Assembly: GCA_965116875.1 (NCBI GenBank)
Contig: OZ220733.1
Coordinates: 2,016,001 to 2,080,000, forward strand
DNA from: Candidatus Latescibacterota bacterium
Lineage (GTDB): Bacteria; Latescibacterota; UBA2968; GCA-2709665
DNA: 64,000 bases
Reading direction: 5' to 3'
The notes below the pieces were generated by a model. The model was not told the origin of the DNA. It made no database searches and worked only from the letters and a program-made list of their open reading frames with translations. Below are positions 12,936 to 13,264 of the stretch, piece after piece. The position numbers and the translations under genes were made by a program. Positions within the stretch are counted from its first letter, which is position 1; every line of letters begins with the position of its first letter.

Positions 12936-13030
12936 TTGAAAAACTAGCGCAAATATACGATTGCCTTTTGCTATTAGCCGTATACACGTCCGAAAGCAAG
13001 TATATCCAACCCACTCAATCGAGGCCAACA

Positions 13031-13225
13031 TTGAAACGAGATCAAACCGATCATTTGCTGTTCTCAATCAACGCGGAAATTGACAGGACTGGAAGAATCC
13101 AGGGTTGTTTTGCATCGCCGACTCCGATTGAAGATCACGTCTGTGGATGGCCACGTTTTCCCATATTACCCCCGCCGATGACAACAGAAGCAACTCTTGA
13201 AGCTCACACTAGGTTGTCTGTCTGA
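13031..13225 (+). CDS. Putative RiPP precursor peptide (64 aa, ranthipeptide-like)
   Basis: GAGG at 13021-13024 then TTG. Sequence MKRDQTDHLLFSINAEIDRTGRIQGCFASPTPIEDHVCGWPRFPILPPP...; lies between the sigma54 promoter and the rSAM gene. Confidence 0.6.
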   Translation: MKRDQTDHLLFSINAEIDRTGRIQGCFASPTPIEDHVCGWPRFPILPPPMTTEATLEAHTRLSV

Positions 13226-13264
13226 AGAGTGAGCTAGTCCGATTATTTCGATCGACATTGAAGG

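Follow-up and report, generated by a model that had tools for sequence, protein, structure and literature searches.

Does the short interval between a giant sigma54-activator gene and the gene of a radical S-adenosylmethionine (rSAM)/SPASM enzyme hold that enzyme's substrate, and what would the enzyme make of it? The question is raised by a locus in a Candidatus Latescibacterota bacterium (assembly GCA_965116875.1, contig OZ220733.1, positions 2,016,001 to 2,080,000 of the forward strand), a stretch of 64,000 nucleotides that was analysed as a whole and is called the window here. A first-pass annotation had proposed that a hidden 64-residue peptide, read from a TTG codon, precedes the rSAM gene as its precursor and recalls the SCIFF and QhpC precursors. 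With somewhat better than even confidence, we favour the view that this open reading frame (ORF) encodes the precursor of an undescribed family of peptides made by ribosomes and then modified post-translationally (RiPPs), in a three-gene unit with a sigma54 activator and an rSAM/SPASM maturase, and that its product most likely carries a single-Cys thioether. Ranked by likelihood, the rival explanations are a Trp cyclophane, oxidation of the Cys, a QhpC-type peptide and a non-coding region; each is weighed below with the evidence that bears on it.

The ORF upstream of the rSAM gene is conserved as a protein

Searches covered the organism's own genome (5.45 Mb), 101 related genomes, 1.84 billion representative proteins and a collection of 5.8 billion proteins; 15 genomes of the organism's genus were included. 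The 64-residue ORF, with GAGG, a 6-nt spacer, TTG and the translation first given for it, was reproduced exactly from the sequence. The genome also holds a paralogue (E 2.3e-14) with 55% identity across residues 9-57, which likewise lies between a sigma54-activator gene and an rSAM gene. When the 101 related genomes were searched with a two-sequence profile, strong matches (E 4e-11 to 4e-46) appeared only in four genomes of the genus; matches at E 0.0046-0.086 in 25 further genomes were treated as noise. At the DNA level there are six copies in 4 of the 15 genus genomes, two each in G000 (the genome of the window) and G009 and one each in G001 and G010, and the rSAM gene was found in the same four genus genomes with identical copy numbers. 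Every one of the six peptide copies is placed between an activator of about 1620 residues (57-64% identical) and an rSAM (57-70% identical). The TTG start is supported: the other five copies have ATG at the aligned position, behind AAGGAGG, AAGGAG or GGAGG.

The substitution pattern points to selection on the protein. The six genus copies (alignment A3) align ungapped over residues 1-57, and Nei-Gojobori counts on their codons gave a pairwise proportion of synonymous differences (pS) of 0.60-0.85 (0.22 in one close pair) versus a proportion of nonsynonymous differences (pN) of 0.15-0.48, with dN/dS of 0.14-0.63. Constraint is strongest in the core (residues 30-51, pN 0.26 vs pS 0.67) and visible in the leader (residues 9-25, 0.35 vs 0.74), and residues 2-8 are unconstrained (0.57 vs 0.59). 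A profile search of the 1.84 billion proteins returned ten matches, of which eight are peptides of 59-75 residues (E 1.7e-29 to 1.1e-8) that were called by other pipelines, all from the same Met. The other two, long proteins of 4891 and 1102 residues that match profile positions 3-29 only, contain short tandem repeats and were dropped. Two further resources contributed little: a metagenome scan with the peptide alignment gave 140 pattern matches, none confirmed, and the ESM Atlas was uninformative (scores all ≤0.86, low recognition). Among sequencing runs, no RNA set was listed, and a few DNA rows with a small share (sponge metagenomes, 0.06-0.17) were not taken to indicate the habitat.

Could the ORF nevertheless be untranslated, as a conserved RNA leader or a chance frame? 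The TTG start and the modest Shine-Dalgarno sequence would fit such a case. However, conservation is found at the amino-acid level while synonymous sites are saturated, the translations stay ungapped over residues 1-57 and have their gaps in the tails, and the relatives have ATG with a strong Shine-Dalgarno sequence at the same position. There is also no Rfam family over the ORF, the sole match in 12650-13350 being an osmY-like one at 12708-12788 with 18.9 bits against a gathering score of 46.9. We regard this explanation as the least credible of all. On the sequence comparisons, the ORF is a real gene under purifying selection as a protein, and the paralogue, the pairing with the rSAM gene and the selection pattern together support its assignment as the precursor peptide of the adjacent enzyme.

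The peptide also extends beyond the genus, as the translation of regions upstream of rSAM homologues shows. In g6, another genus of the same order, rSAM homologues of about 50% identity occur in 16 of 21 genomes, with at most three copies per genome. Nineteen such upstream regions were translated and 15 hold an intact ORF of 53-64 residues behind GGAGG-ATG, so that, with the six genus loci, a conserved peptide stands where the first-pass annotation had suggested looking for one. The g6 peptides are of the type M-A-T-R-R-K-L-T-L-I-N-G-T-I-D-x-E-G-x-I...G-(G)-C-x-P-x-x-x-x-V-P-P-L-P-F-P-D-D-D-D-W-D-D-F. Among the remaining four loci of this search, L062 and L063 encode divergent single-Cys peptides, the ORF of L049 is cut by a contig end and that of L060 is frameshifted. 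At L060/L075 (genome G058) the leader and an I-T-L-S-C core lie in different frames, upstream of a 45%-identical rSAM; this apparent frameshift is either an assembly error or a decayed copy. Two weak Thorarchaeota matches (31-33% identity), obtained when the rSAM was compared with genome contigs, were not used.

The family is defined by one cysteine

Which residues of the peptide could be modified? In the 13-member alignment of the window subtype (A4), which has a single 2-residue gap, in P0128, the residues M1, N14, G21, P32, C38, W40, P41, L46 and P47-49 are invariant and F43 is present in 12 of 13. At position 26, 6 of 13 members have Cys, and P0123, the closest orthologue (75% identical locally), has Tyr. 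Five members carry Arg at position 42 and one carries Lys, the remainder having W, D, E or L. The window and g6 subtypes are homologous (hhalign probability 93.3%, E 2.7e-7, 45 columns), and in their joint alignment of 26 sequences (A9) the sole invariants are M1, N14, G21, C38 and P47.

A profile based on A9 recovered 267 clusters at E ≤ 1e-3, all of them unnamed or 'hypothetical'. Conservation was then scored in 127 sequences, made up of 119 of the 120 clusters listed for the family profile and the eight peptides from the 1.84-billion-protein search. Every one of the 127 carries [IV]-N-[GA], with a Cys that follows the Asn by 18-24 residues (21-24 residues in 126); in 126 there is exactly one Cys in that range and 110 have no other Cys at all. 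The family leader reads hydrophobic-x-x-[IV]-N-[GA]-x-x-D-x-x-G-x-[IV], and a stretch rich in Pro and aromatic residues comes after the single Cys. A C-x-P pattern is found in about half of the family, a Trp occurs within six residues after the Cys in 65 of 127, and some members have no aromatic residue before the Pro-Pro motif.

These counts bear directly on the QhpC analogy that had been drawn from the GC...C-x-W-P core. QhpC has several conserved Cys and a Trp, for three thioethers and a quinone, and a QhpC-like product here would carry several Cys-to-Asp/Glu thioethers together with a Cys-Trp-derived quinone. The analogy is understandable: the window peptide does have two Cys and a Trp, the QhpD model (TIGR03906) matches the enzyme at 3e-69, a distance similar to that of the SCIFF maturases, and an S8 protease and an ABC exporter, the kinds of protein that QhpE and QhpF are, are encoded at the paralogous locus. 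But because Cys26 is not conserved, several thioether rings of the QhpC or SCIFF kind are unlikely, and since a Trp near the Cys is found in only 65 of 127 sequences, the chemistry that defines the family cannot be a Cys-Trp crosslink or a quinone, even with Trp40 kept in all 13 subfamily members. The QhpD score is likewise far below its cut-off (233.8 bits vs 453), there is no QhpC family match at E ≤ 1, and neither dehydrogenase subunit genes nor any other quinohemoprotein amine dehydrogenase gene was seen among the neighbours scanned. The QhpC-like peptide is thus very improbable.

The likeness of the HLLFSIN leader to those of SCIFF and QhpC did not hold up at the level of the peptide either. 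No Pfam or NCBIfam model matches any of the 13 subtype members at E ≤ 1, and comparison by hhalign with 25 SCIFF peptides gave probabilities of 0.09% and 0.78%, so that homology to SCIFF peptides is not detectable. The SCIFF alignment (A7) consisted of 25 SCIFF-like ORFs selected by eye from metagenome loci. These loci had been kept by a scan with the alignment of the 37-46%-identical enzymes, using patterns that were too generic; all 80 are of the SCIFF type, with enzymes 26-34% identical, and they were reused as an outgroup. The SCIFF precursor (TIGR03973) differs from the family in composition too, with six Cys in its C-terminal ~45 residues versus two in the window peptide and one in 110 of 127 family members.

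The adjacent enzyme forms a clade beside the SCIFF maturases

The coding sequence of the enzyme probably begins at the ATG at 13277, like that of the 491-residue database copy P0001. The CX3CX2C motif (C122, C126 and C129) is invariant in 46 sequences and the Pfam Radical_SAM match has E 6e-15. Seven SPASM cysteines (C360, C378, C416, C419, C425, C429 and C448) are invariant and all align with those of CteB, with a Pfam SPASM match (19.1 bits) under the threshold of 21.5. PF05402, the PqqD-like RiPP recognition element (RRE), is recorded in 13 of the 60 closest clusters, and the window's own protein misses E 0.01 with that model.

Among NCBIfam models ScfB (TIGR03974) comes best (2e-75, 254.4 bits), followed by the nif11-type maturase (1e-73, 248 bits), PapB (3.5e-72, 243 bits) and QhpD (3e-69), so that the leading matches are thioether or peptide maturases; far lower come the anaerobic sulfatase maturase (8e-29), YhhB (6e-23) and FxsB (4e-17). 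In the PDB the best match is CteB (5WGG, E 1.1e-57) and the second an anaerobic sulfatase maturase (6e-17), which makes SCIFF/CteB the closest named and solved relative of the enzyme. The collection of 5.8 billion proteins holds about 60 clusters (90% identity) that are at least 37% identical to it, their named sources being Gemmatimonadota or Latescibacteria metagenome-assembled genomes only; beyond this clade, identity falls to 29-36% in proteins named SCIFF maturases. In a quick maximum-likelihood tree a long branch (SH-aLRT 100) separates 40 clade members from six SCIFF maturases, to which identity is 28-30% over the whole alignment and 29-36% locally. ScfB membership would require 425 bits, and the separate, fully supported branch agrees that the enzyme lies outside that family.

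One further residue sets part of the clade apart. An extra Cys357 (C-[HY]-G-C, at about 14333-14335), three residues before the first SPASM Cys, is present in all 29 enzymes of at least 48% identity and in P0060, and absent from the other members of the 37-46% group and from SCIFF maturases. Cys357 may be a fourth ligand of auxiliary cluster I. As an observation of its own, three loci, L039 (7897-9378), L040 (9211-10602) and L075, have second and third rSAM genes behind the maturase gene, with about 25-32% identity to it.

A predicted complex places the leader on the N-terminal domain

In CteB the leader binds as a strand and the Cys lies next to auxiliary cluster I. The open iron site of that cluster in the CteB structure is said to bind the substrate Cys. 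The same arrangement was obtained when the enzyme (46-row alignment) and the peptide (13-row alignment) were modelled together in three runs, with three controls. The interface score ipSAE was 0.72, 0.71 and 0.66 in the three runs and 0.00 in all controls, with a partner pLDDT of at least 52 and at least 52% of contacts shared by runs. The pair passes the score mark used. Of 157 solved complexes 116 do so, and of 215 mismatched pairs 2, figures that hold only approximately with custom alignments. The tightest modelled contacts join peptide residues 10-14 (L-F-S-I-N) to enzyme residues 31-40, and peptide residues 33-38 touch enzyme residues 348-362, 378 and 426-429, a region holding C360, C378 and C429, which we take to be the auxiliary cluster I ligands by SPASM convention. 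Modelling of the leader-enzyme complex, as had been suggested, thus put the leader on the N-terminal domain, and the model supports the idea that the pair binds as CteA binds CteB.

A single thioether is the most likely product

How would such a unit work? The sigma54 promoter would drive the precursor gene, in the order giant activator, precursor, rSAM/SPASM maturase. Leader residues ~8-17 would add as a strand to the RRE-like N-terminal domain of the enzyme (residues 31-40), and the core would thread into the catalytic barrel, where Cys38 could reach auxiliary cluster I (C360, C378, C429). As in CteB, a neighbouring residue would lose a hydrogen to the 5'-deoxyadenosyl radical and the sulfur of Cys38 would close a single thioether ring, a sactionine or a ranthionine, which in the window subfamily may lie within or beside C38-x-W-P-x-F-x-x-L-P-P-P. 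We propose a thioether because the nearest relatives of the enzyme are the thioether-forming SCIFF maturases. The acceptor could be a backbone alpha-carbon (sactionine) or a residue of the Pro/aromatic stretch, both being possible; the crosslink could even be of a new kind, in which the lone Cys is bonded to one of the Pro or aromatic residues in the C-x-W-P-x-F-x-x-LPPP or VPPLPFP core.

A ring centred on the Trp instead of the Cys is the foremost alternative. Here the Trp40 ring would be joined by a C-C bond to the side-chain carbon of the residue two positions on (W-P-x), as by WprB and the triceptide maturases, leaving Cys38 as an anchor or idle. The window peptide does have one such triplet, W40-P41-R42, in which W40 and P41 are invariant in the 13 subfamily members, and WprB is reported to form links from Trp-C5 to Arg-Cgamma at WPR motifs (in part of the text of PMC11851443). 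The family, however, conserves neither WPR nor WxR/K: just 5 of 13 subfamily members have Arg42, Trp follows the Cys within six residues in about half of the family, and some members have no aromatic residue before Pro-Pro at all. The enzymes differ as well. WprB is described as having a twitch domain without the auxiliary-cluster-I cysteines and as needing a separate WprC (part of PMC11851443), whereas in the window enzyme the SPASM domain is complete and the N-terminal domain is fused to it in one protein, and its matches to YhhB and FxsB are far below the one to ScfB. We therefore hold a Trp cyclophane to be unlikely, and return to Cys38 as the probable site of modification.

Even at Cys38, the reaction might stop short of a ring. 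The enzyme might oxidize or otherwise convert this one residue, for instance into a formylglycine-like aldehyde in the manner of anaerobic sulfatase maturases, which would suit a single invariant Cys without a conserved acceptor, the C-x-P found in about half of the family, and the rank of an anaerobic sulfatase maturase as second-best PDB relative. The sulfatase motif is C/S-x-P/A-x-R. In the peptide there is no Arg at +4 and the window subfamily has C-x-W-P, not C-x-P; moreover, the match to sulfatase maturases is much weaker than that to the SCIFF maturases (6e-17 vs 1e-57 in the PDB, 8e-29 vs 2e-75 in NCBIfam), and a leader with an RRE-type domain is typical of RiPP crosslinking enzymes. 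Such a conversion is even less likely than a cyclophane, and a single thioether remains our preferred product.

A single-Cys thioether is not without precedent. KgrA is a single-Cys sactipeptide according to part of PMC10288494. Peptides of this kind (KgrA, the enteropeptin type) offer a model for a one-Cys rSAM RiPP; they come from a different host group and gene cluster, and the likeness is by description only. The closest parallel overall is the SCIFF (CteA)/CteB-ScfB system: (i), a small precursor gene lies directly upstream of the gene for an rSAM/SPASM enzyme with a leader-binding domain at its N-terminus (predicted in the window enzyme); (ii), the conserved unit is minimal, neither a protease nor a transporter being obligatory; (iii), in the model, the leader would bind as a strand with the Cys beside auxiliary cluster I. 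Compared with the SCIFF system, the window unit has the extra Cys357 and is under sigma54 control by a dedicated giant regulator. From these sequence comparisons, the new family works most like SCIFF/CteB and is not a member of it.

Several points weigh against this interpretation: (i), the window copy has a TTG start and a weaker Shine-Dalgarno sequence than its relatives; (ii), the enzyme is under every curated NCBIfam cut-off (ScfB 254 vs 425); (iii), the thioether chemistry is carried over by analogy from relatives that are 28-30% identical over the whole alignment; (iv), a complex of CteB with its peptide is already in the PDB, so that the high complex score may reflect likeness to it; (v), the model leaves peptide residues 39-64 without confident placement; (vi), Cys357 could fill the open iron site that the CteB mechanism needs; and (vii), no acceptor side chain is conserved across subfamilies.

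Promoter, start codon and flanking repeats

The signals around the gene are listed in Table 1. The promoter element TGGTACGAAGTTTGC is the sole exact match to TGGYACG-N4-TTGC in the 64-kb window, and the related expression [CT]GG[CT]A[CT][GA]-N4-TTGC has 59 matches on both strands of the 5.45-Mb genome. With transcription starting about 12 nt after the GC, the expected 5' leader begins about 85 nt before the TTG, as had been predicted. All six genus copies have TGG[CT]A[CT]G-N4-TTGC, in the form GGGTACG-N4-TTGC at L041 and L038, 70-123 nt before the start codon. In the wider family the strict sigma54 pattern is found upstream of 13 of 23 peptides and with a different first base upstream of eight more, in five of which the examined upstream sequence ends before TTGC.

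The longer ORF call from 12875 (116 codons) had been doubted, and rightly so, as it begins upstream of the sigma54 promoter and its extension is not conserved: at L037 and L040 the open frame extends just 12 and 5 codons upstream of the aligned Met, so that the N-terminal extension cannot be ancestral. A hairpin with a T-run equivalent to the one before the window promoter precedes the promoter in 6 of 6 genus loci and is visible in those g6 loci with upstream sequence at hand. This palindrome keeps a C-T-T-G-T-G...C-A-C-A-A-G-like sequence among paralogues whose coding regions are synonymously saturated, and the T-run always follows; it could end transcription of the activator gene, be bound by the activator, or do both. 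The inverted repeat over the stop codon is present as first described; as a hairpin, however, it is neither significant nor conserved. Its fold is no stabler than that of shuffled sequence (z = +0.29), none of the equivalent sites in the other five genus loci is significantly stable (z -0.74 to +2.04), and we therefore regard the repeat as due to chance.

Table 1. Coordinates of the features at the locus, numbered from the first letter of the window
Feature	Position	Strand	Remarks
GT2 glycosyltransferase gene	4042-5106	+	upstream of the activator gene
OppA-type (SBP_bac_5) binding protein gene	5154-7010	+	upstream of the activator gene
Regulator gene, 1623 aa	7785..12656	+	Ser/Thr kinase, AAA_16 (STAND), TPR/MalT-like, GAF, sigma54 AAA+ (Sigma54_activat), HTH_8 (Pfam)
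Palindrome/hairpin with T-run	12885..12918	+	directly 5' of the promoter; listed as terminator-like
Sigma54-type -24/-12 promoter element	12920..12934	+	TGGTACGAAGTTTGC
Shine-Dalgarno GAGG	13021..13024	+	6-nt spacer before TTG
Precursor peptide gene	13031..13225	+	64 codons and TGA 13223-13225; start TTG 13031-13033
Leader motif of the window peptide	within 13031..13225	+	L10-x-x-I13-N14-A-x-x-D18-x-x-G21-x-I23
Core of the window peptide	within 13031..13225	+	P32...C38-G-W40-P41-R-F43-P-I-L46-P47-P48-P49
Cys38 codon	13142..13144	+	only core residue invariant family-wide; proposed modification site
7-bp inverted repeat bracketing the stop codon	13201..13235	+	AGCTCAC 13201-13207 / GTGAGCT 13229-13235; probably without function
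rSAM/SPASM peptide maturase gene, 495 aa	13265..14752	+	predicted N-terminal leader-binding domain
GC-rich hairpin	13314-13333	+	CGCGCGCAAACGCGCGTGCG; inside the 5' end of the rSAM coding region
224-aa protein gene	14783-15457	+	N-terminal hydrophobic helix; no family at E 0.01
76-aa ORF	16157-16387	+	signal-peptide-like N-terminus; 9 Cys in the C-terminal half
ApbE flavin transferase gene	17537-18601	+	Pfam 3.9e-79

A dedicated regulator and a variable neighbourhood

Only three genes, those for the regulator, the peptide and the enzyme, are constant across loci. A homologue of the regulator is encoded directly upstream of the peptide in 6 of 6 genus loci, as given above, and at about 41% identity in g6 loci. 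In the genome of the window there are two full-length regulator copies only, one for each peptide/rSAM pair; the other sigma54 activators of that genome match the C-terminal part of the regulator only.

Downstream of the maturase gene a tight same-strand array encodes the 224-residue protein without a family, a TlpA/ResA-like redoxin, the 76-residue Cys-rich ORF, an NHL/DUF5128 propeller, ApbE and an FGE-sulfatase-domain protein. No strong terminator-like site is listed after the rSAM gene before 19803, and there are four weaker ones with 5-6 stem pairs. Since only regulator, peptide and enzyme are constant, these downstream genes are not counted as shown parts of the system. Two of their products form an observation of their own: the 224-residue protein contains a G-I-T-G-A-T-K-T stretch, which we take to resemble the flavinylation motif of FMN-binding domains, and the ApbE gene lies three genes beyond it, and the two may form an extracytoplasmic flavoprotein module. 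The 76-residue ORF, between the redoxin and propeller genes, matches neither a Pfam nor an NCBIfam family and does not occur at the other peptide/rSAM loci; perhaps it encodes a secreted peptide rich in disulfides that has nothing to do with the rSAM.

The paralogous locus L041 (G000:C1:258000-276000) has a different set downstream: a DUF5128 propeller, an AhpC/TSA-like redoxin, an ABC exporter, a rhodanese and an S8 subtilase-DUF1611 fusion. The exporter and the S8 protease are encoded at that locus and not at the window locus. Downstream at the g6 locus L073, a 39%-identical S8-DUF1611 protein and a redoxin are encoded. Neighbours at other loci include glycosyltransferases, AraC-type regulators, extra rSAMs, a tyrosinase, or unrelated genes. 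As for the two genes upstream of the window's activator, homologues of the GT2 glycosyltransferase flank the unit at L038, L040, L072 and L076 and homologues of the binding protein at L041 and L039, which may reflect shared synteny or membership in the system.

What would the regulator respond to? It is conceivable, if rather doubtful, that the unit is a private signalling circuit in which the modified peptide is sensed by the TPR/GAF part of its own activator, which in turn drives the peptide's sigma54 promoter. A gene for an OppA-type binding protein lies beside the activator in 3 of 6 genus loci, and in such a circuit this protein might bring the peptide back in. Were that so, the 1-3 paralogous units per genome would be separate channels.

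A single-Cys precursor class

No published description of the peptide family was found in the literature searched, outside which lie the supplements of the rSAM surveys PMC10288494 and PMC11851443, where members of the enzyme clade might be listed. The sole related item found, in part of PMC12993501, concerns automated 'ranthipeptide' cluster calls in sponge-associated Latescibacterota.

The peptides and their enzymes are a new precursor class and a new enzyme clade within the rSAM/SPASM RiPPs, with an unusual regulator. Among rSAM/SPASM enzymes, the group that includes those of SCIFF, PapB and QhpD is known for substrates with several cysteines. The present enzyme clade is sizeable (about 60 clusters at 90% identity) and has its own single-Cys precursor class (at least 267 peptide clusters), enzymes and peptides alike being unnamed or 'hypothetical' and hosted by uncultivated bacteria whose source labels are Gemmatimonadota or Latescibacteria. 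The conserved leader and the lone Cys provide a new precursor signature for genome mining, where current family libraries miss the peptide entirely, and the compact two-gene pair of substrate and enzyme asks what a CteB-like enzyme does with one thiol. RiPPs tied this firmly to a kinase/STAND/sigma54 regulator are rare, and the link makes the regulation of this one, and a possible signalling role in these bacteria, testable.

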